DNA of 44,154 bases from Gammaproteobacteria bacterium. Its GTDB lineage: Bacteria > Pseudomonadota > Gammaproteobacteria > JAJDYQ01. The stretch is from the NCBI GenBank assembly GCA_026196145.1, contig JAPHTU010000158.1, positions 1-44,154 on the forward strand, read 5' to 3'. The notes beneath the pieces were generated by a model. It did not search any database, was not told the origin of the DNA, and saw only the letters and a list, made by a program, of their open reading frames with translations. Positions 3,562 through 40,892 of this stretch are shown in pieces; positions within the stretch are counted from its first letter, which is position 1, and every line of letters starts with the position of its first letter. The translations under genes were made by a program, and so were the position numbers.

Positions 3562-4557
3562 ATGGCAAATGTCACTATGCGCCAAATGCTTGAGGCTGGC
3601 GTACACTTTGGTCATCAGACCCGTTACTGGAATCCCAAGATGGCCCCGTATATTTTCGGTCATCGCAGCAAGATCCATATCATCAATCTGGAAAAAACCC
3701 TGCCGATGCTGAATGACGCGCTCAATTTTCTGGGCTCGGTCGCAAGCAACAATGGCAAGATCCTGTTTGTTGGCACCAAGCGTGCTGCACGCGACCCTAT
3801 CGCCAAGGCAGCTCAACGTTGCGGTATGCCTTACGTCAGCCAGCGCTGGCTCGGTGGTATGTTGACCAACTTTAAGACTGTTCGTCAATCCGTAACACGC
3901 ATGAAGAACATAGAAGCCATGGCTGAAGATGGTCGCATGGGTCGTCTCAGCAAGAAAGAAGCCCTGGGATTGCGCAGAGAGGCTGAAAAGCTGGATAAAA
4001 GCCTGGGCGGCATCCGTAATATGGACTATTTGCCTGACGCAATCTTTGTCGTCGATGTCGGTTATGAAGATATCGCCATCACCGAAGCCAGAAAACTGGG
4101 CATACCAATTGTTGGTATCGTCGATACCAACAACAAAACAGACAACGTTGATTATGTCATCCCTGGTAATGACGATGCGATCCGTGCCATCTCTCTATAT
4201 GTAGAGGCACTGGCAGATACCATTCTTGAGGCCAGAAAGACAATTGCCACCCATATCGGCTCCGATGATCTGGTAGAGCTGGATAGTGAAGGTAACCCGG
4301 TTGCACAGCCAAAGAAGAAGGTTGCCAAGAAAACAGCCAAGGTAACGACACGTAAAAAGGCGGCCCCCAGCGAGTCTACCGATGCTGAAGACAAGGGTGC
4401 GGAAGCAGCGGCAGAAGTGGAGGCTGCGCCAGCAACTGAAGCCAAGACAGTAGCCAAAAAGAAGGCTGTTGCCAAGAAGAAGGCGACAACCAAAAAGAAG
4501 GCGACAACCAAAAAGAAGGCCGTTACCAAGAAGAAAGCGGCTACCAAGTCTGAATAG
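3562..4557 (+). CDS. rpsB: 30S ribosomal protein S2 with a C-terminal Lys/Ala-rich extension
   Basis: [27 protein letters not shown]... is colinear with E. coli S2 for about 240 aa. An ~80-aa tail rich in K/A/T/E follows. Total length is 331 aa. Confidence 0.96.
4450..4548 (+). repeat. In-frame 18-bp (6-codon) tandem repeat array inside the rpsB 3' end
   Basis: About 5.5 units encode [33 protein letters not shown]. Units 4483-4500 and 4501-4518 are identical (gcgacaaccaaaaagaag). Confidence 0.9.
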
Positions 4558-10987: not shown

Positions 10988-13282
10988 ATGAAAACAATAA
11001 GTTATAAGATTATCTTAATGTTATTTATATGCATGGGGTTGATGCATAATGTCTACGCGGCAACGTTTGTAGTAGAAGATATTCGTGTGGAAGGTATCCA
11101 GCGCATATCGGCGGGTACCGTGTTTACTTATCTGCCGGTGAAGGTCGGCGATGAATTCAGTGAGTCTCAATATGCAGAGACTATTCGTGCTGTATATAAA
11201 AGCGGTTATTTCAACGATATCCGACTGGAAAGACAGGGTAATATCCTGATTGTATCCGTGCAGGAACGGCCAGCAATCGCCAGTATTACCTTTAGCGGTA
11301 ACAAGGAATTCGATAATGATGAACTGAAAGTGGCGCTGAAAGACATCGGTCTTGCGGAGGGTCGTGTCTACAATAAATCAGTCCTGGATAAGGTCGAGCA
11401 GGAGTTACGTCGGCAGTATTATAGCCATGGGAAGTATTCTGTCAGGATACAGTCCACTGTAACGCCGCTGGAGAGAAACCGTGTTGGTATTGGTGTCGAC
11501 GTATCCGAAGGTCTGGTCGCCAAGATCAAGGAAATCAATATCATTGGTAATGAAACCTATGACGAGGAAGAACTCAAGAAGCAGTTTGAATTGACTGTAC
11601 CTACCTGGTATTCATTTTTCTCCAAGGATGATCAGTATTCAAAACAGAAACTGGCCGCTGATCTGGAAAAATTGAGTTCCTACTACCTGGATCGTGGCTT
11701 CCTGAAATTCAATATAGATTCCACCCAGGTTTCCATTACACCTGATAAAAAAGACATCTACATCACCATTAATGTAACCGAAGGTGAGCAGTATTCCGTA
11801 GAAGAGGTAAAAATTTCCGGCAAACTGCTTTACCCCGATGATGAACTGTTCCGTTCCGTTCAGGTCCGCGCCGGTGATATTTTTTCAAGAAGGGCGATCG
11901 TAGCTAGTACCGATGCCCTGACCGACCTGATGGGCAATGATGGCTATGCCTTCGCCAACGTCAATGCGATCCCCGACCTGGACGAGGAAAAGAAAACGGT
12001 TTCCCTGACCTTTTTCATAGATCCTGGCCGTCGTATCTATGTGCGCCGCATTAATGTCGCGGGCAATTCCAGGACACGTGATGAAGTACTGCGACGCGAG
12101 ATGCGACAGATTGAAAATGCCTGGATGTCTACCAAGGACGTGGAACGTTCCAGAACCCGCCTGGAGCGTCTGGGTTATTTTACCGAAATTAATGTTGAAA
12201 CCCCGGCAGTGCCGGAAAACCCCGACCAGGTCGATGTGAATTTCTCTGTTACCGAGCAACCTTCAGGCCAATTGCTCGCAGGTATCGGCTATTCGCAGTC
12301 ACAGGGCTTTTTGCTAAATTCAAGTATTTCCCAGGATAATTTCCTGGGATCCGGTGTCAAGTTTGGGGTTAATTTCAGTACCAGTGAAGCGGATGAGGCC
12401 TATGGTATTAGCTACACCAATCCCTATTACACAACGGATGGTATTAGCCGGGGCTTTAGCATTCTATACCGCTCGCGAGATGGTGAGGAATTGGGTATTT
12501 CAGATTACACGACCGACGTTTTAAGCGGCAAACTGAACTACGGCTTTCCAATTTCCGAGACCAACACTATCTTTGTAAGCCTGGGTTATGAAAATCTGGA
12601 GCTCAAGCCTGCATTTGGCGCCCCAAGGGAAATCAGGCAATTTGTCGTCGATAACGGCGATACCTATGACAACGTTATCGCAACCGCTTCATGGGTCGAT
12701 GATAATCGAAATCGTAGCGCACTATTTGCGGATCGTGGTACCTATACTTCAATCAGTGGTGAGGTTTCTTCACCAGGTAGTGATCTGGAATACTATAAAA
12801 TCACCGCGCGTCATCAGCGATTTTTCCCATTGACAAGAAACTCGACACTATCACTCAATGGTGAAATCGGTTTCGGTGATGGCTATGGCGACCTTGACGA
12901 CCTGCCGTTTTACGAACACTATTTCGCCGGCGGTGTCTCTTCCGTACGAGGTTTTGAAGATAACAGCCTGGGCCCGAAAGACTCAACCGGCGAGCCCTTT
13001 GGTGGTGATTTCAGACTGGTTGCCAATGCCGAGGTTATTCTACCGATGCCGTTTGTCAGTAAAGATGACAAGGCCTGGCGGATGACGGCCTTTATGGATG
13101 CAGGTAACGTGTTCACAGAAGCCGGTGATTTTGACGCGGGTGACCTGCGCTACTCGGCTGGTCTTGGTGTCCGGTGGCTATCGCCCTTTGGACCGATCAA
13201 GGCCAGCTTTGCCGAACCGCTGAACGACAAAAGCGAAGACGACGTACAGAACTTCCAGTTTACCTTTGGCTCAACATTTTAA
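10988..13282 (+). CDS. bamA: Outer membrane protein assembly factor BamA
   Basis: 764 aa with a signal peptide. [13 protein letters not shown] marks the start of POTRA1, with repeated POTRA-like segments. C-terminal beta-barrel ends in ...FQFTFGSTF (terminal aromatic). Confidence 0.96.
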
Positions 13283-30972: not shown

Positions 30973-32292
30973 ATGGCAGCAACTAAAATCGGCCGATATG
31001 AAGTAGAGCACAAGATAGGCGAAGGCGCATTCGGTGTGGTCTACAAGGCCCGCGATCCGGTTCTCGACAGGGCAGTTGCTATCAAGGTCCCATCACTCAC
31101 GCTGAATGATGACGAACTCGCCAGCCTGATCATGGAGTTTTATCGTGAGGCACGTATCGGTGCCCAATTCCGTCATTCCAATATCGTCACAGTCTATGAC
31201 CTGGGCGTGAATGAGCATAGCGAAAACATCAAGATGCACTATCTGGTGATGGAATATGTCTCGGGCATGGAACTAAAGGATTACCTGAAGCAGGTTGAGA
31301 AAATCGAATACAAGGAAGTCCTGAAAATCATGTTTGAGTGCTGCAAGGCACTGGATTACATTCATTTTCACAAGATCGTACACCGTGACATCAAGCTCGG
31401 TAACATCATGTATAACCCGAGCTATTCTACGGTCAAGTTAATGGATTTTGGCATTGCCGACCAGCTGGATGTAAAGGCAGCCAAGGGTGTCGGTACGTTA
31501 TTTTATATGTCACCGGAACATTTTGACGACAGCAAGGAATTAACGTTTCAAACCGATATTTTCGCACTGGGCTCCGTGATGTATCAGCTTATTACCGGCA
31601 AGCCGGCATTTCAGGGCAAGGATATCGACGCGGTAATCCAGAATATCCAAACCAAGGAACCTATCCCGATTCAGCACTATCGTCCCGATGCGCCACCAGA
31701 GCTGAGCGACCTGGTAAACAAGGCGCTGGCCAAGAATCCTGCCGATCGTTATGAATCTTCACTGGCCTTTGCAAGCGCCATTCAGAAATTACTCGATACA
31801 CTCTCCGTACCGACATCGGAAAGTGATGAAGTCGATGCAGAAGAATCAGGCAAGATTCAGCAAAATGACGATTATGTATTCCTGCGAGATAACAGCTGGT
31901 TTAAGGACTTCTCACCCAGCCTGATCGAGGAACTGGTGAAGGTCGGCCGGGTTGAGACCTATGCCGCCAATGAATTAATCGTTACCGAGGGTGAAATCGC
32001 CGATAGTTTCTACACCATTATTTCCGGTGCCGCCGAGGTTGTGAAAAGCTCCAGCGTTGTGGCAAGAATGAAGGCGGGTGACAGCTTCGGTGAACTGGGT
32101 CATGTTACTGCCAACGCACGCCGTACTGCCAGCATACGGACTACGGAGCTCACCAAGGTACTAAACGTCGGTATTGATACGTTGGAAATGCTATCCCCGG
32201 AAAATCAGGCGATGTTATACAAAGGCTTTCTGAAAACGACCATGGAGAGAATGACTGCCCTGCAGGAATCCATGAATGCCTGCGATGTATAG
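30973..32292 (+). CDS. Soluble Hanks-type Ser/Thr protein kinase fused to a C-terminal cyclic-nucleotide-binding (CAP/PKA-R-like) domain
   Basis: Kinase motifs are IGEGAFGVVYKA (P-loop), VAIK (Lys), HRDIKLGN (31381-31404), DFG, MSPEH and DIFALGSVMYQL. After an acidic linker comes a cNMP domain with the phosphate-binding cassette FGELGHVTANARRTASIRT (32086-32142). No TM segment. Confidence 0.85.
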   Translation: MAATKIGRYEVEHKIGEGAFGVVYKARDPVLDRAVAIKVPSLTLNDDELASLIMEFYREARIGAQFRHSNIVTVYDLGVNEHSENIKMHYLVMEYVSGMELKDYLKQVEKIEYKEVLKIMFECCKALDYIHFHKIVHRDIKLGNIMYNPSYSTVKLMDFGIADQLDVKAAKGVGTLFYMSPEHFDDSKELTFQTDIFALGSVMYQLITGKPAFQGKDIDAVIQNIQTKEPIPIQHYRPDAPPELSDLVNKALAKNPADRYESSLAFASAIQKLLDTLSVPTSESDEVDAEESGKIQQNDDYVFLRDNSWFKDFSPSLIEELVKVGRVETYAANELIVTEGEIADSFYTIISGAAEVVKSSSVVARMKAGDSFGELGHVTANARRTASIRTTELTKVLNVGIDTLEMLSPENQAMLYKGFLKTTMERMTALQESMNACDV

Positions 32293-32299
32293 CAGTCAG

Positions 32300-34387
32300 T
32301 TATCCCGCATTATTAAACAACACGCATACACTAACCTCCTGACTGCCATTTCTGATTAATGCAGTGCCGCCATGAAAAGCGGCTATCAAACGCACGATAT
32401 ATAAACCCAGGCCCATATGTGGTGTTTTCGTGGTGCTGGTACGTGCGCTAATCATGGAATCAAACAGGGTATTGATAATACTGTCTGGCACGGGTTCGCC
32501 GTAATTTTGAACACAGAGTTCACAGCCCATATGGGTTACGTTGATGCTCACGCTTATGGCACTACCCTCGGTATGGAAGTCAATGGCGTTGGCAACCAGT
32601 TTGTCCAGCAATTGTGCCATCAGTTCAGCCGAACCATGCAACGTATATTCATCACGATCAGCCGTATACTGAAACGATATATCGGGGAAGGCCTGCTGGT
32701 AACCCTTGACACAACTCTCAATAACGGCACAAAGATTAAAAGGCTCGACACCGGTTGACTTCAAGGCGTTCTCAAGACGTGACGCCTCGGTAAGGTTTGC
32801 CAGTATCATCTTCAGACGCGCCAAGCCTTCATTTGCGCGCTCGATAAGTGGATTGTCAGCTAAGTCTGCCGATTCATGCTGCAGGTTCTCCAATGATGAC
32901 TGAACAACAGTTAACGGTGTACGTAACTCATGCGAAAGCTTGCTCGCCATGGTTTCCAGGTAATGCTGATAGGACTGCAAACGCTCAATCATTCCCGCCA
33001 TTCCGCGATTGAGCTCACCAATCTCATCATTGATGATGGAAACATGAATACGATCATTAAGTCTCCCGTCATCACTAACAGAATCCTGCATCTGCTGGTT
33101 CAGGCCGCGAATACGTTTAATCAGAATAGTCGCATAGACCAGTAGTATCATGATGATGACTGCCATAGCAGATAGCGATGTCAGCATGATTTTAAGCAGA
33201 GCCTGATGCCTGACACCTGAAATCGCCTGCGTGGACTGCTGGATAACGAGCGAGCCGGCAAGCTCACCGTCAATCAACACAGGTACAGCGACCGATAAAA
33301 TCCCCACACCCTGGTCATCGCGACTGAACCGATGATCGGCCTGATTGGACAGGGCGTTCCTCACATAATCGTCATCCATGCGAAATGGAAAATCACCCGG
33401 TTCACCAACAACGGCATCTGCGAGCAACAGTAATTCATGCAAGCGCTTGAAGATGCCGGCACTACCCTGCGCTTGCTGGTTGTCATCTCCTGGTTGAATA
33501 TTTCCGTCGATTGCCAGAATATTGCCACGACTATCCAGCAGGCTGAGTTTCTGGTTCGGTGCACGGTAGGTCGATAATTGCTGTTTAATATCCGCTAGCC
33601 TGCCAAACACATAACCCGCTATCTGGCTATCTGCCAGTGGGACATTACCGATTACTGCTGAATAAGCCGCGTCTTCGTTATCCCTGTCTATCACATGCAG
33701 TGAAACAAACCGGCTCGTCATAAAATCAGGAATGGAAATTTCAATCGTATAACCACCGGCTCGTGTTTGCATTTCAGCCTGTATACGGGTCTCCGGCAGG
33801 CCGGGGGCGTCTACCGGAATCACACTTAACCAGCCCGGCGAATTGCTGCTGATAATATATTGATGTTTTCGATCATTCGCATCAACAAGGCCCACCAACA
33901 CATGGTCCCCGTCTCGTGGTGTTCGTGCGGGATACCTGGTCTGGTATAACCGGTCATCATCGACATCCAGCAACAACACAAGGGCACGCGATTGATAGTA
34001 GGCACTCAGGCTGAATCTAATGTGTGTGTCGTTTCTGCCATCCTGTAATGCATTGAAGCTATCATAGTGCTGCTGAATGCGTTCATCGGGCCAGTCATCT
34101 GCATAACCGTCAATCATGATTTGATTGGCGGGTGGTGATAATACGATCTCGCTACGCTCCGGCGTGATTGCCAACTGCCTGTTATGCCCCTTAAGTAGCG
34201 GAGTAACAGGTGCCATTCCATCAAGTATCGTGGTCGCTGTCGTCAGTGCATTGTGCACCTGCTGTTGCCTGAGCAGGCTTTCCATATCACGGATAGTTTG
34301 TACACCAATCCAGGGCAGTATCAGGACAACCAGTGAAATAATCAGCAGCTGCGCCCTGATGGAAGGGAATGGCAGTAATCCTTTCAA
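32300..34387 (-). CDS. Sensor histidine kinase with a ~365-aa periplasmic domain, probably the dedicated-sortase-system histidine kinase
   Basis: TTG start. TM1 is LLIISLVVLILPWIGV and TM2 is ALLKIMLTSLSAMAVIIMILLVYATILI. A HAMP-like segment is followed by the H-box KLSHELRTPL (His codon at ~32930-32932), the N-box LVANAIDF and the G-box HMGLGLYIV. Lies directly downstream of the response regulator and next to the sortase genes. Confidence 0.88.
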   Translation of the reverse strand: MKGLLPFPSIRAQLLIISLVVLILPWIGVQTIRDMESLLRQQQVHNALTTATTILDGMAPVTPLLKGHNRQLAITPERSEIVLSPPANQIMIDGYADDWPDERIQQHYDSFNALQDGRNDTHIRFSLSAYYQSRALVLLLDVDDDRLYQTRYPARTPRDGDHVLVGLVDANDRKHQYIISSNSPGWLSVIPVDAPGLPETRIQAEMQTRAGGYTIEISIPDFMTSRFVSLHVIDRDNEDAAYSAVIGNVPLADSQIAGYVFGRLADIKQQLSTYRAPNQKLSLLDSRGNILAIDGNIQPGDDNQQAQGSAGIFKRLHELLLLADAVVGEPGDFPFRMDDDYVRNALSNQADHRFSRDDQGVGILSVAVPVLIDGELAGSLVIQQSTQAISGVRHQALLKIMLTSLSAMAVIIMILLVYATILIKRIRGLNQQMQDSVSDDGRLNDRIHVSIINDEIGELNRGMAGMIERLQSYQHYLETMASKLSHELRTPLTVVQSSLENLQHESADLADNPLIERANEGLARLKMILANLTEASRLENALKSTGVEPFNLCAVIESCVKGYQQAFPDISFQYTADRDEYTLHGSAELMAQLLDKLVANAIDFHTEGSAISVSINVTHMGCELCVQNYGEPVPDSIINTLFDSMISARTSTTKTPHMGLGLYIVRLIAAFHGGTALIRNGSQEVSVCVLFNNAG

Positions 34388-34405
34388 CCTAGAGCCCGTA
34401 CTGGT

Positions 34406-35098
34406 TCAGGGATTGTTCCATCGATAGCCCATGCCATATACCGTTTCGATGGCGTTAAATCCGTTGTCTATACTTTCAAACTTTTTACGCATACGTTTGA
34501 TGTGCGAAGTAATCGTGCTGTCATCGACAACGATATTTGCCTCCGACATCAGCTGGTCGCGATTCTTAACATGGCCAGGGTAACGCGCCAGTGAATGCAA
34601 TATCCAGAATTCAGTTAATGTCAGATCCAATGGTTCTTCATGGTAGCTTGCCCGCATCTGGTTAATATCTATCGACAGTGGCCCTCGCCGCATAATGTCA
34701 GTCTCTGCCCCCTTGTTTTGCATCGCGTCCATGCGACGAAACAAGGCCGCGATGCGAGCCGAAAGGTTTTGCAGGCTGATGTCCTTGGTCAGATAATCGT
34801 CTGCCCCCAGACGCAGGCCCGAGATTGCATCGATATCGTCATCCCGCGCGGTCAGAAAGATAATGGGCAGAGTAGCTGACTGATTCCGCAGTTCACGGCA
34901 GAGTTCAAAACCACCCTCGGCCTCATCGCCCAGGCCGATATCCAGTATGGCCAGGTCGGGTAATACAGATTTGAATGCTGCAGCAGCTGTCGGGCGATCG
35001 ACATAGGTTTCAATCTGGTATCCCTGACGTGCCAGATGTTGTCGGTAGTTTTCCCGAAGTGCAGCTTCATCCTCAACGATTGCGATCTGTTTTGCCAT
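34406..35098 (-). CDS. OmpR/PhoB-family response regulator, probably the dedicated-sortase-system regulator
   Basis: Receiver domain MAKQIAIVEDEAAL...DLAILDIGLGDE...IIFLTARDDDID...GADDYLTKD. Winged-helix output domain LTLTEFWILHSL...ITSHIKRMRKKF...VYGMGYRW. I prefer the ATG at 35098 (AGGA upstream) over the track's 35134. Confidence 0.9.
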   Translation of the reverse strand: MAKQIAIVEDEAALRENYRQHLARQGYQIETYVDRPTAAAAFKSVLPDLAILDIGLGDEAEGGFELCRELRNQSATLPIIFLTARDDDIDAISGLRLGADDYLTKDISLQNLSARIAALFRRMDAMQNKGAETDIMRRGPLSIDINQMRASYHEEPLDLTLTEFWILHSLARYPGHVKNRDQLMSEANIVVDDSTITSHIKRMRKKFESIDNGFNAIETVYGMGYRWNNP

Positions 35099-35189
35099 TG
35101 ATTGTCCTGCTAATACACGAATGCCTATGTCCAATCATAAGACATTCATGCATGTAAATGTCAGCCAATGGTGCAATTGCCAGAATTCG

Positions 35190-35214
35190 TCAGATTTGCC
35201 CTTCAGATTGCCCT
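35190..35214. promoter_or_regulatory. Tandem direct repeat, candidate response-regulator operator, in the divergent RR/sortase-target intergenic region
   Basis: TCAGATTTGCCCT (35190-35202) is immediately followed by TCAGATTGCCCT (35203-35214). A third ATTGCC lies at 35176-35181. OmpR-family regulators bind direct repeats. Confidence 0.35.
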
Positions 35215-35347
35215 GAATGATGCCGGCCCACGCCTTATCGACGGTCTTTAATTATCACAACAAAGAATTCCGGCGCGGGGCGGGATGCCAGTCAACCGAA
35301 TATTTACCAGGTCATGGATGACACGCTGGACCAAACAGGAGAACGAC

Positions 35348-35509
35348 ATGTTACCACTGAATGATGAATGGCTGAGTTGGCCGCCAGAATCGCTGGATAG
35401 TTTTTTCTCCGGTAGCCCACAAGCCAGATGTGACGATGACATCTGTCCGGAAGAGCAGGCGCCTGCAAGGCAACCACAACAGGAGCATAGCCATGAAACC
35501 AGCAAGTGA
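35348..35509 (+). CDS. Candidate small acidic ORF (53 aa) upstream of and overlapping the sortase-target gene
   Basis: AGGAG sits 6 nt upstream of the ATG at 35348. The product is MLPLNDEWLSWPPESLDSFFSGSPQARCDDDICPEEQAPARQPQQEHSHETSK. Its stop (35507-35509) lies 17 nt inside the downstream CDS in another frame. I recognise no homology, so it could be a chance ORF. Confidence 0.25.
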   Translation: MLPLNDEWLSWPPESLDSFFSGSPQARCDDDICPEEQAPARQPQQEHSHETSK

Positions 35510-37685
35510 AATTTCATCCGCGAGTATCTTTCTACACTGCCTGTTGCAGTCCATTGCCATCGGCCTGGGGTGTGTGGCGCTGTTTACACTGGTCATTGTA
35601 CTGCTGACATCTTCAGCCACGGCACAGGAAGTGGCGCTCAATGATCAGACTAGTGATCTCATCAGTATCAATCAACCACAGCAGGGCAGCCTGTTATTCA
35701 AGACCTCCCATCGTCACCTATACCGATATGCACCGGTACTCAATACTGATGTTGCCATGGATATCACGGCAATGACCGCACGGGTCAGGCTAACCCAGAC
35801 GTTTCGCAACCAGGGGCAGGATTGGGTAGAGGGGATTTACGTATTCCCTCTGCCCGAGAATGCTGCAGTTGATCATATGCGCATGCAAATCGGTGAACGT
35901 GTCATCGAAGGGCAGATCAAGGAACGCCAACAGGCCAAACGGATTTACGAAAAAGCCAGGGCGAGTGGCAGAAAAGCTGCGCTGATTGAACAGGAGAGGC
36001 CCAATATGTTTACCAATTCAGTGGCGAACATCGGTCCTGGAGAAACGATAAAAATCACCATCGAGTACCAGCAATCCATCAGCTATAGCAATGAAAGATT
36101 CAGTGTACGCTTTCCCATGACCATCACACCCCGCTATATGCCGGGAAAACCTCTACCTACCATGGAAGAGTCGTTACCGGCCAGCGCAGGCATGGGCTGG
36201 GCACTTAACACCACTGAAGTGCCTGATGCCTCCAGGATCTCACCGCCTGTACTGGATGAAGGTGAGACACCGGTAAACCCGGTCAACATGCATATCAACC
36301 TGAATGCCGGCATACCGCTGGCGGCCATCAACAGTTTGTATCACCCGATTGATATGACACGTGGTAAAAATGGCAAGGCAAAGATAACGTTAAGTGCCAA
36401 AAAAGTACCTGCCGATCGTGACTTTGTACTGCAATGGCTACCAGCGACATCACATGCACCACGGGCGGCCCTGTTTACAGAGCGTAAGCAAGGTACAGAA
36501 GGTAACGACCAGTTTTATAGCCTGATGATGGTTATGCCGCCTGTCGGTGAAATACCGCAGGCGCTGCCAAGAGAAGTCGTATTTATCATAGATACATCAG
36601 GCTCAATGGGTGGCGAAAGTATCCGCCAGGCCCGTTCAGCCTTGAGTCTGGCCGTCAAACGGCTCAAGCCCACGGATCGCTTTAACGTGATCCAGTTTAA
36701 CTCGACCACCCATGCACTTTTCAACCAACCGGTCATGGCCAACCAGTACAATATCAACCGGGCAATCGATTACGTCGATGGACTCAAGGCAGGTGGAGGT
36801 ACGCAAATGCGCCCGGCCCTGAATCTGGCGCTATCTTACCCAGTGCAGAAACAATATATGCAGCAGGTTGTCTTCCTGACCGATGGTGCGGTAGGCAATG
36901 AAACCGCGTTATTTCAGATCATTCATAACAAACTGGATGATGTCCGGCTGTTCACGGTTGGCATCGGTTCCGCACCCAACAGCTTCTTTATGAGTAAAGC
37001 CGCCCAGTTCGGTCGTGGCACATTTACCTACATCGGCAACATCAGCGAAGTTACCGAAAAAATGGTCACGTTGTTTGGCAAGCTGGAAACCCCCATGATG
37101 CGCGACCTGCAACTGCATTGGCCTGAAAATATGGGGAAGGTCGATGTCTATCCCAAACGTCTGCCGGATATCTATGCCGGTGAACCCCTGGTTATTACCG
37201 CTAAATCCACCGCATTATCTGGTGAAATAAAAATCACCGGCCAGCGTGGGCAACAACCCTGGTCAGCCAGTTTTCCACTCAATAGCCGGGCGAAACAACC
37301 GGGCGTTGGCGTGTTATGGGCTAGAAACCGCATCGAGTCATTAATGGATAGTCTACGCGATGGTGCAGACAAGTCACAGGTACGCCAGCAGGTGATCGAT
37401 ACCGCACTCAATCACCACCTGGTGAGCAAATATACCAGCCTGGTTGCAGTCGATGTAATACCATCCCGACCTGTTGAGGAATCACTCAAGAAAACTGCCG
37501 TAGCAACTAATTTGCCACACGGCATGCAGCGTGCAAAGGTGTTTGGTGCCTCCATGGCAAAAACAGCCACCCCGGCACAACTTCATATGATGATCGGTTT
37601 CATTGTTCTGCTCCTGCTTGGAGCATATTGGGGATTCTCCGGACGGTGCTCCTCCCACCGTACTCCCCAGCGGATGTCGGCATGA
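35493..37685 (+). CDS. Secreted VIT-vWA domain protein with a C-terminal sortase-type sorting signal (proteobacterial sortase target)
   Basis: AGGAG RBS 7 nt upstream of the ATG at 35493, and a signal peptide ending ...LLTSSATA/QE. The VIT-like region is LLFKTS...ARVRLTQTFRNQG..WVEGIYVFPLPENAAVDHMRMQIGERVIEGQIKERQQAKRIYE. The vWA domain has MIDAS residues: DTSGS (36591-36605), GGT and LTDG. The C-terminus is MAKTAT (37554-37571), then the hydrophobic LHMMIGFIVLLLLGAYWGF, then the basic tail SGRCSSHRTPQRMSA. Confidence 0.88.
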   Translation: MKPASEISSASIFLHCLLQSIAIGLGCVALFTLVIVLLTSSATAQEVALNDQTSDLISINQPQQGSLLFKTSHRHLYRYAPVLNTDVAMDITAMTARVRLTQTFRNQGQDWVEGIYVFPLPENAAVDHMRMQIGERVIEGQIKERQQAKRIYEKARASGRKAALIEQERPNMFTNSVANIGPGETIKITIEYQQSISYSNERFSVRFPMTITPRYMPGKPLPTMEESLPASAGMGWALNTTEVPDASRISPPVLDEGETPVNPVNMHINLNAGIPLAAINSLYHPIDMTRGKNGKAKITLSAKKVPADRDFVLQWLPATSHAPRAALFTERKQGTEGNDQFYSLMMVMPPVGEIPQALPREVVFIIDTSGSMGGESIRQARSALSLAVKRLKPTDRFNVIQFNSTTHALFNQPVMANQYNINRAIDYVDGLKAGGGTQMRPALNLALSYPVQKQYMQQVVFLTDGAVGNETALFQIIHNKLDDVRLFTVGIGSAPNSFFMSKAAQFGRGTFTYIGNISEVTEKMVTLFGKLETPMMRDLQLHWPENMGKVDVYPKRLPDIYAGEPLVITAKSTALSGEIKITGQRGQQPWSASFPLNSRAKQPGVGVLWARNRIESLMDSLRDGADKSQVRQQVIDTALNHHLVSKYTSLVAVDVIPSRPVEESLKKTAVATNLPHGMQRAKVFGASMAKTATPAQLHMMIGFIVLLLLGAYWGFSGRCSSHRTPQRMSA
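37554..37685 (+). other. Tripartite sorting-signal-like tail (motif, TM helix, basic tail) of the VIT-vWA protein
   Basis: Direct translation gives ...GASMAKTATPAQ-LHMMIGFIVLLLLGAYWGF-SGRCSSHRTPQRMSA*. The KTAT core is present but there is no LP immediately before it. An LPHG lies 14 aa upstream (37512-37523). Confidence 0.7.
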
Positions 37686-38263
37686 AGAGGTTAGTCTTCA
37701 TCGGCATCCTTTTTCTGGGCCTGGCCGAATTCGGGTATGGTGCCTGGATTCCGGCCAAGGCCTGGCTTTCTCAGGTGTTACTAACCCACGCGTGGCAGGA
37801 AACACTTGAAAACGGACAATCAAACAAACCCTGGCCATGGGCAGATACCTGGCCGGTTTTGAGATTCACCCATGAACCTAGCAGCACCAATCTACTGGTG
37901 TTACAGGGCGATTCAGGGCAGGCGCTGGCATTTGGGCCCGGATTAACCAGTCAAAGCCCGATGCCCGGTAGCACGGGCAACACCATCATCAGCGCACACC
38001 GCGATACCCATTTTGGTTTTCTACAACAGGCCAAGGCGGGCGATATGATCGAACTTCAGGACAGACAGGGGAATCACTACCAGTACCAGCTTATTGCCAT
38101 GGATATCGTGGATAGCAAAACCACTCAACTACAGATAGACACCCCGGATGACCGGGTCACGCTGGTGACCTGCTATCCCTTCAACCAGATAACTACAGGC
38201 GGATCGCTGCGATACGTGGTGACAGGGGAGAAAGTCAGTGAGCGGATAACCAATAAAACCTGA
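37682..38263 (+). CDS. Sortase (Gram-negative/marine proteobacterial type cysteine transpeptidase)
   Basis: N-terminal TM anchor MKRLVFIGILFLGLAEFGYGAW. Catalytic His context IISAHRDTHF, Cys in VTLVTCYPF (TLxTC signature), and Arg in SLRYVV. The ATG at 37682 overlaps the target-gene stop (gcATGA). The track's alternative GTG at 37628 is less likely. Confidence 0.88.
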   Translation: MKRLVFIGILFLGLAEFGYGAWIPAKAWLSQVLLTHAWQETLENGQSNKPWPWADTWPVLRFTHEPSSTNLLVLQGDSGQALAFGPGLTSQSPMPGSTGNTIISAHRDTHFGFLQQAKAGDMIELQDRQGNHYQYQLIAMDIVDSKTTQLQIDTPDDRVTLVTCYPFNQITTGGSLRYVVTGEKVSERITNKT

Positions 38264-40184: not shown

Positions 40185-40892
40185 TTAATTTATCTTTTTT
40201 AGATTAAACGTCTTTTCCTCAAAACTCGCCTGGTCGTGTTGTTTGAATCTTAGACCATCAACCAGTGGCATCTCGATGGCTCCACGTGGTTCCATAAACT
40301 GTAGCTCCTTAACCTTGACGCTATAATGTTTCTCATCGCTGCTTTGCTTTGCATCCTGCCGCTTGGCGCGCTCTATTGATGACAAACGACCACGTTCGAG
40401 CCATACATCACCCAGCGTATTATCGGTTTGGCATTCATACATCATGGCAATGAAGTTACCGATATACTCAACATCCGGCTTCAGGCTAACCTGTCCCGCG
40501 GCGATCTGCCCGGCAACCGGGAATCCTTCGTAACGTATATGCGGGGTGGTGACCTCGTGCAGGCCCCTGTCCAGGTAGACACCCTCGGTCGACTTACAAT
40601 CGAACATGCCTTGCGGGTGAGAATAGGGCACCGGTTTGCCAATTAATCTTGCCTTACCGCTGCCGATATCAAACTGCTGATTTCTGACATGGAAGATAAT
40701 TGTCACTTCCCAGTCCTGCTTCAGGCCCGCCGTGAGCATGCGGGTGCCGTAGAAAAACAGGTTGCTACCCTTAATGGTGAGTTGCCACTCGCCATTGAGT
40801 GTTTTTGCACTAGCCGGGGAGGCTAAAGATGATATGAGGCAGAAAACAAGCAGGCCCTGGAGTATCAACTGCCATGACCTGCCTGAATTCAT
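40185..40892 (-). CDS. Hypothetical secreted protein
   Basis: 235-aa ORF with a signal peptide, MNSGRSWQLILQGLLVFCLISSLASPASA/KT. No family recognised. Its start lies 6 nt after the trxB stop. Confidence 0.6.
   Translation of the reverse strand: MNSGRSWQLILQGLLVFCLISSLASPASAKTLNGEWQLTIKGSNLFFYGTRMLTAGLKQDWEVTIIFHVRNQQFDIGSGKARLIGKPVPYSHPQGMFDCKSTEGVYLDRGLHEVTTPHIRYEGFPVAGQIAAGQVSLKPDVEYIGNFIAMMYECQTDNTLGDVWLERGRLSSIERAKRQDAKQSSDEKHYSVKVKELQFMEPRGAIEMPLVDGLRFKQHDQASFEEKTFNLKKIN

Follow-up and report, generated by a model that had tools for sequence, protein, structure and literature searches.

Genome sequences have shown sortases in outer-membrane bacteria for some twenty years, yet no reaction has been demonstrated for them, and the question at stake is whether a diderm bacterium employs such an enzyme to anchor a protein by a covalent bond to the thin cell wall of its periplasm. 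The locus studied here, at 32300-38263 of a 44,154-nt stretch of gammaproteobacterial DNA (hereafter the window), leaves that question unanswered by itself, and its presence will not surprise a specialist. [quoted passage not shown] The sortase of this system corresponds to subfamily 6 in the scheme of Comfort and Clubb (2004). We assigned an outer membrane to the host because a match to the BamA equivalog model (870 bits) lies at 10988-13282, in agreement with the diderm genome named in a first-pass annotation of this DNA. That annotation had also described four adjacent genes, with a kinase and a regulator read leftward and a target and a sortase read rightward, and all four were recovered as intact ORFs (Table 1). 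What it had overlooked is a conserved 53-aa ORF between the regulator and the target.

Table 1. Positions of the features of the sortase locus within the window
Feature	Position	Strand	Description
Sensor histidine kinase, PdsS/PghK-type	32300..34387	-	695 aa; TIGR03785 best match
OmpR-family response regulator, PdsR/PghR-type	34406..35098	-	230 aa; TIGR03787, Response_reg, Trans_reg_C
Conserved block ATTGCCAGAATTCGTCAGATTT	35176..35197	.	tandem YCAnAWTT repeat, spacing 10 bp
Near-invariant blocks CCGGCGCGGGGCGGGATGCC, GTCATGGATGACACGCTGGACCAAA	35270..35335	+	flank variable spacer, just 5' of small ORF
Conserved small ORF, 53 aa (MLPLNDEWLSWPPESLDSFF...)	35348..35509	+	between regulator and target
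Sortase target, VIT-vWA	35493..37685	+	730 aa; TIGR03788, Pfam VIT + VWA
C-terminal sorting signal of target	37554..37682	+	MAKTAT, hydrophobic helix, basic tail
Class GN sortase	37682..38263	+	193 aa; TIGR03784, Pfam Sortase

The system is covered by five models: TIGR03784 (class GN sortase), TIGR03785 (kinase), TIGR03787 (regulator), TIGR03788 (target) and TIGR03789 (PdsO). The first-pass annotation had proposed searches with the first four, and three of its proteins passed the equivalog cutoffs, namely the sortase (210.7 bits against 158.25; model positions 2-173 of 174), the target (813 bits against 552) and the regulator (377.1 bits against 335.7). The kinase did not: TIGR03785 was its best match, with residues 10-689 aligned to model positions 1-698, at 517.2 bits against a cutoff of 612.2, so that by score it is a homologue of the family below the equivalog threshold. 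The Pfam families proposed alongside, Sortase (E 4e-25), VIT and VWA, were all found. An exact-sequence look-up of the 193-aa sortase returned no record. The closest relatives of the locus are metagenome contigs, and among 80 retained GTDB loci the nearest target was 56% identical to that of the window. Full-length targets were present in 78 GTDB loci, and in 73 of these a sortase ORF lay no more than 800 bp 3' of the target, the other five being short contigs or ORF-calling artefacts.

The target ORF runs from 35430 to 37685 (+), and its likely start is the ATG at 35493, with AGGAG 7 nt upstream. A Sec signal covers residues 1-44, with a hydrophobic N-terminal stretch placed at 7-45 and ending SATA|QE, followed by the VIT domain (about 84-192), the vWA domain (about 361-510) and an ITIH-like C-terminal region. 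The MIDAS is complete (D367/S369/S371/T437/D464) and its residues are invariant or nearly so in 67 sequences. The AF2 model (pLDDT 80) had human ITIH1 as its top fold match (6FPY, E 2e-37, TMt 0.60) over approximately 620 aligned columns, so that the likeness extends along the whole chain. ITIH heavy chains are cut close to the C-terminus and then become bound covalently to a glycan polymer, through an ester between a C-terminal Asp and chondroitin sulphate or hyaluronan and without a sortase; the parallel to sortase anchoring is an analogy, not evidence. As a separate observation, a 708-aa VIT-VWA protein of Limnobacter is induced by gamma radiation (bioRxiv 10.64898/2026.05.23.727404) and SO2195 appears in a radiation-deprivation transcriptome; no link of either to the target family was found, and both count as leads only.

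The target had been said to end in a sorting motif, a transmembrane segment and a basic tail. This architecture was found, with a correction to the motif, which is MAKTAT and not of the LPxTG type. It occupies residues 688-693, in a low-pLDDT linker directly before the modelled helix (about 697-717), and the tail SGRCSSHRTPQRMSA follows. In a scan of the 265 open frames of the 44 kb, the target alone combined motif, helix and basic tail. The family consensus is LPQTAT, and T-A-T was kept in 96-98% of 111 relatives. Cleavage by the sortase at T|A of MAKTAT seems to us quite likely. Position -2 of the motif is more variable: Pro in 96 of the relatives (86%), Ala in 12 and Thr in 3, and the window has Ala. 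Another candidate motif, the nearly invariant NLPxG at residues 673-677, was rejected because 20 residues separate it from the helix, which the near-invariant TAT directly adjoins.

The sortase ATG at 37682 overlaps the target TGA as ATGA (37682-37685), the stop-start overlap noted in the first-pass annotation. The enzyme carries an N-terminal membrane anchor (residues 4-23) and the expected His/TLxTC/Arg signature as His106, Cys164 (TLVTC) and Arg177. These residues aligned to the H/C/R of the closest solved structure, B. anthracis 2LN7, and the triad was kept in five relatives of the lineage. Since the host is diderm, the reaction would be periplasmic. Judged by alignment scores, class D sortases are the nearest characterised relatives, with 72 bits for NF033746 (cutoff 165) and 71.9 bits for NF058671 (cutoff 140); at 72 bits against 165 the enzyme is not itself a class D member. 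Models of class C pilus sortases matched weakly, at 44 bits, and class C was also among the PDB matches. In Gram-negative bacteria the peptidoglycan usually belongs to the diaminopimelate type. Class D sortases cleave LPNTA after Thr and link the product to diaminopimelate cross-bridges (review PMC8225981). From the position of class D as nearest characterised relatives we infer, by analogy, transfer to diaminopimelate. The side-chain amine of meso-diaminopimelate, in lipid II or nascent peptidoglycan, would resolve the thioacyl intermediate and the target would be fixed covalently to the sacculus. This is the least certain step of our explanation, and we hold it tentatively, at slightly below even chances. 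The literature searched contained no experiment showing cleavage, acceptor or localisation for a class GN sortase, and no paper on the acceptor or the target ligand, both of which the first-pass annotation had listed as open.

A different acceptor would be a protein lysine, either in an OmpA-like or outer-membrane envelope protein or in a second target molecule, the latter giving pilin-like polymers. PdsO (TIGR03789, OmpA-like) is the fifth member of the system and the first gene of the Shewanella target operon (PMC11580497; bioRxiv 10.1101/2023.05.05.539549). It is encoded directly 5' of the target in 22 of 55 related loci, and in an S. algae pdsS G547W mutant it was the most strongly induced gene, with expression of pdsO, target and sortase up 799-, 388- and 126-fold (PMC11580497). 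The weak class C matches fit a protein acceptor as well, and so does the nearly invariant lysine K530 of the target, although no pilin-type motif surrounds it and the closest characterised sortases belong to class D, not class C. In the window, a search of the six-frame translation of the whole 44 kb with an HMM of 10 PdsO sequences taken from related loci (three of which scored 132-156 bits with TIGR03789, one above the 152.2 cutoff) gave no match at E<=10, and pdsO was also absent from the window's relatives L081-L086. The words complete and self-contained, applied to the locus in the first-pass annotation, thus have to be withdrawn. Among the 28 related loci with a linked two-component system, 18 had no pdsO directly 5' of the target, 12 of these had no OmpA-like gene within 10 kb either, and all of the pdsO-less loci keep the target-sortase pair. 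In the window lineage, a check found both the sortase triad and the TAT motif intact. Because this lineage and the 18 loci retain the pair without pdsO, PdsO cannot, as far as gene content tells, be an obligatory acceptor, and we regard a protein acceptor in general as unlikely. Beyond the 44 kb there could still be a pdsO gene or further proteins with a sorting signal; if pdsO were truly missing genome-wide, a class GN sortase would need no dedicated protein acceptor, which would point to peptidoglycan as the anchor.

The absence of pdsO could also be read, together with the Ala in place of Pro at position -2 and the below-cutoff score of the kinase, as a sign of decay, the locus being a non-functional remnant after pdsO loss and the change of motif. 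Two of these features, the motif Ala and the kinase score, count against our preferred explanation as well. Decay is nevertheless very improbable: every gene is intact, architecture, synteny, triad, TAT and MIDAS all persist while target identity drops from 95% to 54%, and other lineages also have Ala at -2.

When a nucleophile is absent in vitro, sortases hydrolyse the substrate. The enzyme could be mainly a processing protease, with water resolving the acyl-enzyme and the target freed to the periplasm or to onward export. The lack of a reported acceptor for class GN in the literature searched is compatible with this, and so is the pairing of one enzyme with one substrate, a pattern that dedicated maturation proteases typically show as well, rhombosortase/GlyGly-CTERM being an example (PMC3237569, PMC6219818). 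Signal peptidase alone, however, would free a soluble periplasmic protein, so a membrane tether and a transpeptidase fold would be an elaborate route to the same result, and the catalytic Arg and the TAT residues past the cleavage site are strongly conserved. A mainly processing role seems to us improbable, and transfer to peptidoglycan is the reading that we carry forward.

The signal behind the system can be approached through the kinase. This protein has TM1 at about residues 3-34, a periplasmic sensor at 30-396 and TM2 at about 395-429, then HAMP, HisKA and HATPase_c domains, with the H-box His486 within SHELRTP. Its partner was found as a mechanical ORF at 34406-35134 (-) with a TTG start at 35134; ATG 35098 is the likely start, preferred because the gene call in relative L081 is 230 aa, and the phospho-acceptor Asp53 lies within LAILDIG. 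The sensor domain alone matched TIGR03785 with 119 bits (E 1.8e-34, model positions 23-404). Its AF2 model (pLDDT 89.6, pTM 0.86) gave CBM9 1I82 as the top PDB fold match (E 4e-6, probability 1.00, TMt 0.63), and WalK-like extracellular PAS domains as further matches. Pfam found no CBM9 in the kinase, and a kinase-family sequence profile run against PDB sequences returned kinase cores only, CBM9 being absent; the likeness is therefore visible by fold comparison only. Antibiotics that target peptidoglycan activate the S. oneidensis pair PghKR (SO2192/93), as does the loss of PBP1a, and the response requires the CBM9-like periplasmic domain (bioRxiv 10.1101/2023.05.05.539549). Residues R177, Y178 and I289 are essential for PghK signalling, and PghKR is in use as a biosensor (PMC13488354). 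Since the sensor domain of the window is homologous to that of the family and has a CBM9-like fold as reported for PghK, the pair probably senses peptidoglycan damage by analogy with Shewanella. Its exact signal could differ, considering the below-cutoff score and an identity of only 27-36% to the kinases found in other lineages; with the named members of the family that were recovered, identity was approximately 30-35%. A word-indexed search with the sensor domain alone gave one protein, and the full-length kinase was used as the query instead.

The Shewanella studies also amend two earlier statements about the locus. The gene set had been called a purely computational family without a known mechanism, which holds for the acceptor and the target ligand but not for the two-component half. 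The two-component system had further been called dedicated, and yet the S. oneidensis pair controls other genes: PghKR induces blaA, relV and the sortase operon >17-fold, and its beta-lactam phenotype is independent of SO2194-96. Deletion of SO2194-96 gave no ampicillin phenotype, a result that counts against our preferred explanation (bioRxiv 10.1101/2023.05.05.539549). The pair may be a general peptidoglycan-stress regulator, the sortase operon being merely a neighbouring member of its regulon, and in 27 of the 55 related loci the target and sortase occur with no adjacent regulator. On the other side, divergent linkage of the two-component genes to the target operon is kept through the window lineage, and the candidate regulator site occurs once in the window. 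We consider the two sides evenly balanced, and this reading refines our preferred explanation, with which it is compatible.

The candidate site lies in the 395-bp divergent intergenic region between regulator and target. An alignment showed the block ATTGCCAGAATTCGTCAGATTT to be kept in six loci with target identities to the window of 54-95%; its 18-nt core is unique in the 44 kb, where a search for further copies gave just a 3-mismatch chance match. We infer from this conservation that the block is a candidate binding site for the OmpR-type regulator. Downstream of it, CCGGCGCGGGGCGGGATGCC and GTCATGGATGACACGCTGGACCAAA may be promoter or 5'-leader sequence. Rfam gave no match in 35000-35600, and a scan for sigma-70 promoters and terminators gave counts at or below chance. 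RNAalifold, applied to the conserved leader, predicted a stem between CCGGCGCGGGGCGGGATGCC and GTCATGGATGACACGCTGGACCAAA, all pairs of which are invariant, so that covariation lends it no support.

The small ORF that follows is preceded at 6 nt by GGAGAA, and it shares its last 17 nt with the start of the target. Across four loci, substitutions in the first 22 codons numbered 32/13/59 at codon positions 1/2/3. The product is acidic and has no signal peptide. The ORF was found in L081-L086, the small peptides of the lineage having 37-65 aa and a core LNDxWLSWPPE; a search of 1.84 billion proteins returned 5 representative clusters at E<=1e-3, and neither NCBIfam nor any curated family model matched. 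It occupies the slot that pdsO takes in other loci. A cytoplasmic small peptide may have replaced PdsO as the first gene of the operon in this lineage, either as a new component or as a regulatory leader, although we find this rather doubtful. In a leader role, for example, the passage of ribosomes through the W-P-P stretch might control whether the overlapping target gene is expressed.

Taken as a whole, we lean towards damage-induced export followed by sortase cleavage at Thr-Ala and transfer to peptidoglycan meso-diaminopimelate. Homology and fold suggest that the CBM9-like/PAS-like periplasmic domain of the kinase would detect cell-wall damage, probably as glycan fragments, after which the kinase would autophosphorylate on His486 and pass the phosphate to Asp53 of the regulator. 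The regulator would then bind the conserved tandem repeat and activate the operon, in which small ORF, target and sortase are translationally coupled. As read from its sequence, the ITIH-like target is exported by Sec, and its C-terminal helix and basic tail keep it attached to the inner membrane. From known sortase chemistry, Cys164 would cleave Thr691|Ala692 to give the thioacyl intermediate, and once anchored, the MIDAS-bearing target might bind a partner via its metal site and help to stabilise the damaged envelope. The gains from this locus are modest. An entire lineage can do without the OmpA-like partner, which narrows the possible acceptors; the target resembles human ITIH heavy chains along its whole length; and a conserved small ORF outside the curated family models becomes relevant to any experiment on the lineage.

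Compared with the catalogued dedicated sortase system, the window agrees in its families of sortase, target and regulator, each scoring above cutoff, and in having adjacent and overlapping target and sortase genes, a divergent two-component pair, a diderm host, and a target with VIT, vWA and sorting signal. It differs in having no pdsO, a kinase under the equivalog cutoff, MAKTAT in place of LPQTAT and a lineage-restricted conserved small ORF before the target. With the Shewanella pair PghKR/PdsSR (SO2192-SO2193) it shares a large periplasmic sensor with a CBM9-like beta-sandwich and an OmpR-type partner divergent from the sortase operon; in contrast to Shewanella, the window contains no blaA or relV, and the operon begins with the 53-aa ORF instead of following the pdsO-target-srtA order of SO2194-96. 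The class D sortases of Bacillus (B. anthracis SrtC, 2LN7) resemble the window enzyme in the aligned H/C/R, the Thr-Ala at the cleavage site of the motif and the setting of a diaminopimelate-type cell wall, whereas the window differs from them by its diderm host, its single substrate and a score below the class cutoff. Finally, the target shares with ITIH1 (6FPY) the VIT domain, the vWA domain with MIDAS and the C-terminal region in fold, at an identity of only about 15%.

Four open reading frames (ORFs) fill positions 32300-38263, as the first-pass annotation had described: a kinase and a regulator reading leftward, and a VIT-vWA protein (the target) with an overlapping sortase reading rightward. 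The regulator precedes the kinase with 18 nt between them, and its 230-aa length from the probable start agrees with that called for the gene in a relative at 95% identity. The probable start of the target lies 7 nt downstream of AGGAG, and its TGA overlaps the sortase ATG as ATGA.

Features of the dedicated sortase locus
Feature	Position	Strand	Description
Histidine kinase	32300-34387	-	ORF, 695 aa
Response regulator	34406-35134 (mechanical ORF)	-	Probable start ATG 35098, giving 230 aa
Tandem repeat	35180-35197		CCAGAATT-CG-TCAGATTT; conserved, single occurrence in the window
Near-invariant block	35270-35289		Upstream of the small ORF
Near-invariant block	35311-35335		Upstream of the small ORF
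Small ORF	35348-35509	+	53 aa, MLPLNDEWLSWPPESLDSFF... then a variable acidic tail
VIT-vWA target	ORF from GTG 35430; probable start ATG 35493	+	730 aa
Sortase	ATG 37682 to 38263	+	193 aa

We verified a housekeeping block in the window (map, rpsB, dnaE, tilS, pyrG, eno, ispD and truD). BamA is encoded in this block (870 bits), so the host is diderm, as had been proposed, and the sortase cluster is chromosomal. The ribosomal protein S2 gene (3562-4557, plus strand) encodes 331 aa. Bacterial S2 proteins usually have ~240-255 aa, so this one would carry ~80-90 extra residues at its C-terminus; the protein aligned over its full length (residues 1-323) with the 'sunset domain variant' model at 293 bits (cutoff 710). 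A 235-aa protein with an N-terminal signal peptide (40185-40892, minus strand) had no NCBIfam match at E<=1e-5. On the other side, a plus-strand gene (30973-32292) for a Ser/Thr protein kinase with a fused cyclic-nucleotide-binding domain converges on the histidine kinase gene, the two ends being 7 nt apart. This neighbor is kept in two contigs of the same lineage (L081 and L082) and, since it is absent in a third (L086), is probably not part of the sortase system.

Families were assigned by NCBIfam equivalog models with curated cutoffs, with Pfam as confirmation. The sortase scored 210.7 bits against the class GN sortase model TIGR03784 (cutoff 158), the target 813 bits against the marine proteobacterial sortase target TIGR03788 (cutoff 552), and the regulator 377 bits against the dedicated sortase system response regulator TIGR03787 (cutoff 336). 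These three proposed assignments were confirmed; the kinase, with 517 bits over its full length, fell below the curated cutoff (612) of the dedicated sortase system histidine kinase TIGR03785, which was nevertheless its best match by a wide margin. The Pfam domains Sortase, VIT and VWA were all found, together with Response_reg/Trans_reg_C and HisKA/HATPase_c. According to hydropathy and motif search, the 193-aa sortase has an N-terminal anchor (aa 4-23), His106, TLVTC164 and Arg177, and its expected His, Cys and Arg aligned with those of the nearest solved sortase, 2LN7, which we take to be the B. anthracis class D enzyme. Class D models were its next-best NCBIfam matches, far under their cutoffs. 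Overall, the locus was recognised correctly: it belongs to a dedicated sortase system that is already known and curated and has a wide distribution.

The target begins with a long hydrophobic signal ending SATA|QE (hydropathy and motif search), and its MIDAS residues (D367-x-S369-x-S371, T437 and D464) are invariant or nearly invariant in 67 sequences. Its C-terminus has the predicted order of motif, membrane segment and basic tail: MAKTAT (688-693), a hydrophobic helix and the tail SGRCSSHRTPQRMSA. The family sorting motif is [LMF]-P-Q-T-A-T, with T-A-T kept in 96-98% of 111 relatives. Because position -2 is Pro in 96 of these, Ala in 12 and Thr in 3, MAKTAT is a minority form, though one that recurs in several lineages. 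All eight closest relatives lack the Pro, and MP[KQ]TAT occurs in relatives at 58-65% identity. A second LPxTG-type site was considered at NLPxG (aa 673-677, 37509-37523), 11 residues upstream of the sorting motif. Among 67 family members its Asn, Leu and Pro are at least 90% conserved and its Gly is invariant, and we rejected it as a superficial likeness sitting well away from the membrane helix. In the full-length AlphaFold2 model (pLDDT 80), the sorting motif is in a low-confidence linker directly before the modelled membrane helix. The model matched human inter-alpha-inhibitor heavy chain 1 (6FPY) across ~620 columns (E 2e-37, TMt 0.60), so the earlier label "ITIH-like" applies to the entire chain and is not limited to the two Pfam domains.

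The kinase is the most divergent component, with 27-36% identity to kinases of other lineages, compared with ~60-65% for the regulator, ~50% for the target and ~45% for the sortase. Its phosphorelay residue is present (His486), as is that of the regulator (Asp53). Two transmembrane segments bracket a ~367-aa periplasmic domain (hydropathy and motif search), which by itself matched TIGR03785 positions 23-404 (E 1.8e-34). [quoted passage not shown] Taken together, the family match, the model and the CBM9 fold indicate that the sensor is homologous to that of the family.

The first-pass annotation had called the system complete. The published system has five genes, the fifth being the OmpA-like PdsO, whose gene heads the target operon in both S. 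oneidensis (SO2194) and S. algae. In the window, the regulator-target gap is only 395 bp. We built an HMM from ten PdsO proteins of related loci; three of the collected proteins were scanned, with TIGR03789 as best match in all three and above cutoff in one. Searched against a six-frame translation of the whole 44 kb, the HMM found nothing at E<=10. Neither was pdsO found in six lineage contigs, whose targets are 95%, 74%, 68%, 65%, 63% and 54% identical, so its absence is a lineage trait and not an assembly accident. Wherever upstream sequence exists in these contigs, regulator and kinase diverge from target and sortase; truD and/or nadA flanks are common to the window and four of the six.

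Nor is the PdsO-less arrangement unusual. Of 55 GTDB loci whose target has at least 4 kb of upstream sequence, 28 have a divergent regulator, 22 a PdsO-like gene directly upstream of the target, and 18 a two-component pair without upstream PdsO; in 12 of these 18, no OmpA-like gene lies within 10 kb. The invariant core of the system is the target-sortase pair. More than 590 loci matched in GTDB representative genomes; besides Gamma-, Beta- and Alphaproteobacteria, the pair was found in Nitrospira, Desulfobulbia-type lineages and one Thermoanaerobaculales (Acidobacteriota) MAG. The protein collection yielded at least 8000 VIT-vWA homologues at E<=1e-10. Five related loci without pdsO upstream of the target (L005, L008, L009, L010 and L069) carry an OmpA-like gene that matches the PdsO HMM more weakly (45-63 bits); it follows the kinase gene on the minus strand, which suggests that the OmpA-like partner can relocate from one operon to the other. 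Three tubeworm endosymbiont loci (L013, L020 and L023) have a ~2 kb gap between regulator and target; between regulator and pdsO lies an extra minus-strand ORF of 121-167 aa with an HNH-nuclease-like motif, apparently inserted into the intergenic region.

The slot held elsewhere by pdsO contains the small ORF, which has a Shine-Dalgarno sequence (GGAGAA) 6 nt upstream and overlaps the target start by 17 nt. Over its first 22 codons, substitutions in four loci fall 32/13/59 at codon positions 1/2/3, the pattern expected of translated sequence under purifying selection. It is present in all six lineage contigs and is restricted to this lineage, with only five representative clusters matching at E<=1e-3 among 1.84 billion proteins; a regular-expression search of 80 GTDB loci did not find its WLSWPP core. 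We found neither a signal peptide nor a family-model match in it; most obviously, it could act as a leader peptide coupled to translation of the target or as a small accessory protein in the cytoplasm. The regulator-target intergenic region is unusually conserved, and its tandem repeat makes a plausible candidate for the binding site of the OmpR-type regulator. The two near-invariant blocks upstream of the small ORF had no Rfam match and no support from covariation. Across 35132-35335, the near-invariant non-coding blocks CAATCATAAG, ATTGCCAGAATTCGTCAGATTT (the tandem repeat), CCGGCGCGGGGCGGGATGCC and GTCATGGATGACACGCTGGACCAAA, likewise without Rfam match or covariation, are retained even in loci with protein identity as low as 54%.

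The claim that the system lacks mechanistic characterisation no longer holds for its two-component half. Yin et al. renamed SO2192/SO2193 PghK/PghR; the pair becomes active in response to peptidoglycan-targeting antibiotics of diverse structure and to PBP1a/LpoA loss, its signalling requires a periplasmic domain with a CBM9-like module, and it induces blaA, relV and the adjacent pdsO-target-sortase operon (>17-fold), whose deletion left ampicillin resistance unchanged (bioRxiv 10.1101/2023.05.05.539549). Huang and Liu described a pdsS mutation, G547W, that recurs in clinical S. algae, with pdsO up 799-fold, the target 388-fold and the sortase 126-fold (PMC11580497), and a 2026 paper put PghKR to use as a biosensor (PMC13488354). 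For substrate attachment the claim stands: a 2021 review called Gram-negative sortases "not well characterized" (PMC8225981), and we found no report of an acceptor for this sortase's substrate among open-access papers and preprints, a search that may miss subscription-journal work.

Export signal, membrane tether, sortase triad, gene coupling and a carbohydrate-binding-fold sensor can all be read from the sequence. By analogy with Shewanella, cell-wall damage would activate the kinase and regulator and switch on the operon, and sortase chemistry predicts that Cys164 would cleave Thr691|Ala692. The likeliest acceptor would be the diaminopimelate amine of peptidoglycan, since the nearest characterised enzymes, class D sortases, take LPNTA substrates and link them to diaminopimelate cross-bridges (PMC8225981). 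The PdsO-less lineages argue against the need for a dedicated protein acceptor. Less likely alternatives are that the sortase joins the target to a protein acceptor or that the target self-polymerises, and that the target is simply released by hydrolysis. A decaying locus is unlikely because every functional residue is conserved across the lineage. The biological question raised earlier is a real one, but it concerns the family as a whole and is not specific to this window.

Compared with known systems, the locus is a new member with some variant features: it lacks pdsO, has a small ORF ahead of the target, carries the motif MAKTAT and encodes a divergent kinase. After cleavage close to their C-terminus, ITIH heavy chains become covalently linked to a glycan polymer that they stabilise, which parallels the proposed fate of the target; this analogy is worth testing and is not evidence. 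As for the sensor, the best template reported for Shewanella PghK was 1I8A, the apo form of the same CBM9 module matched here as 1I82 (bioRxiv 10.1101/2023.05.05.539549).
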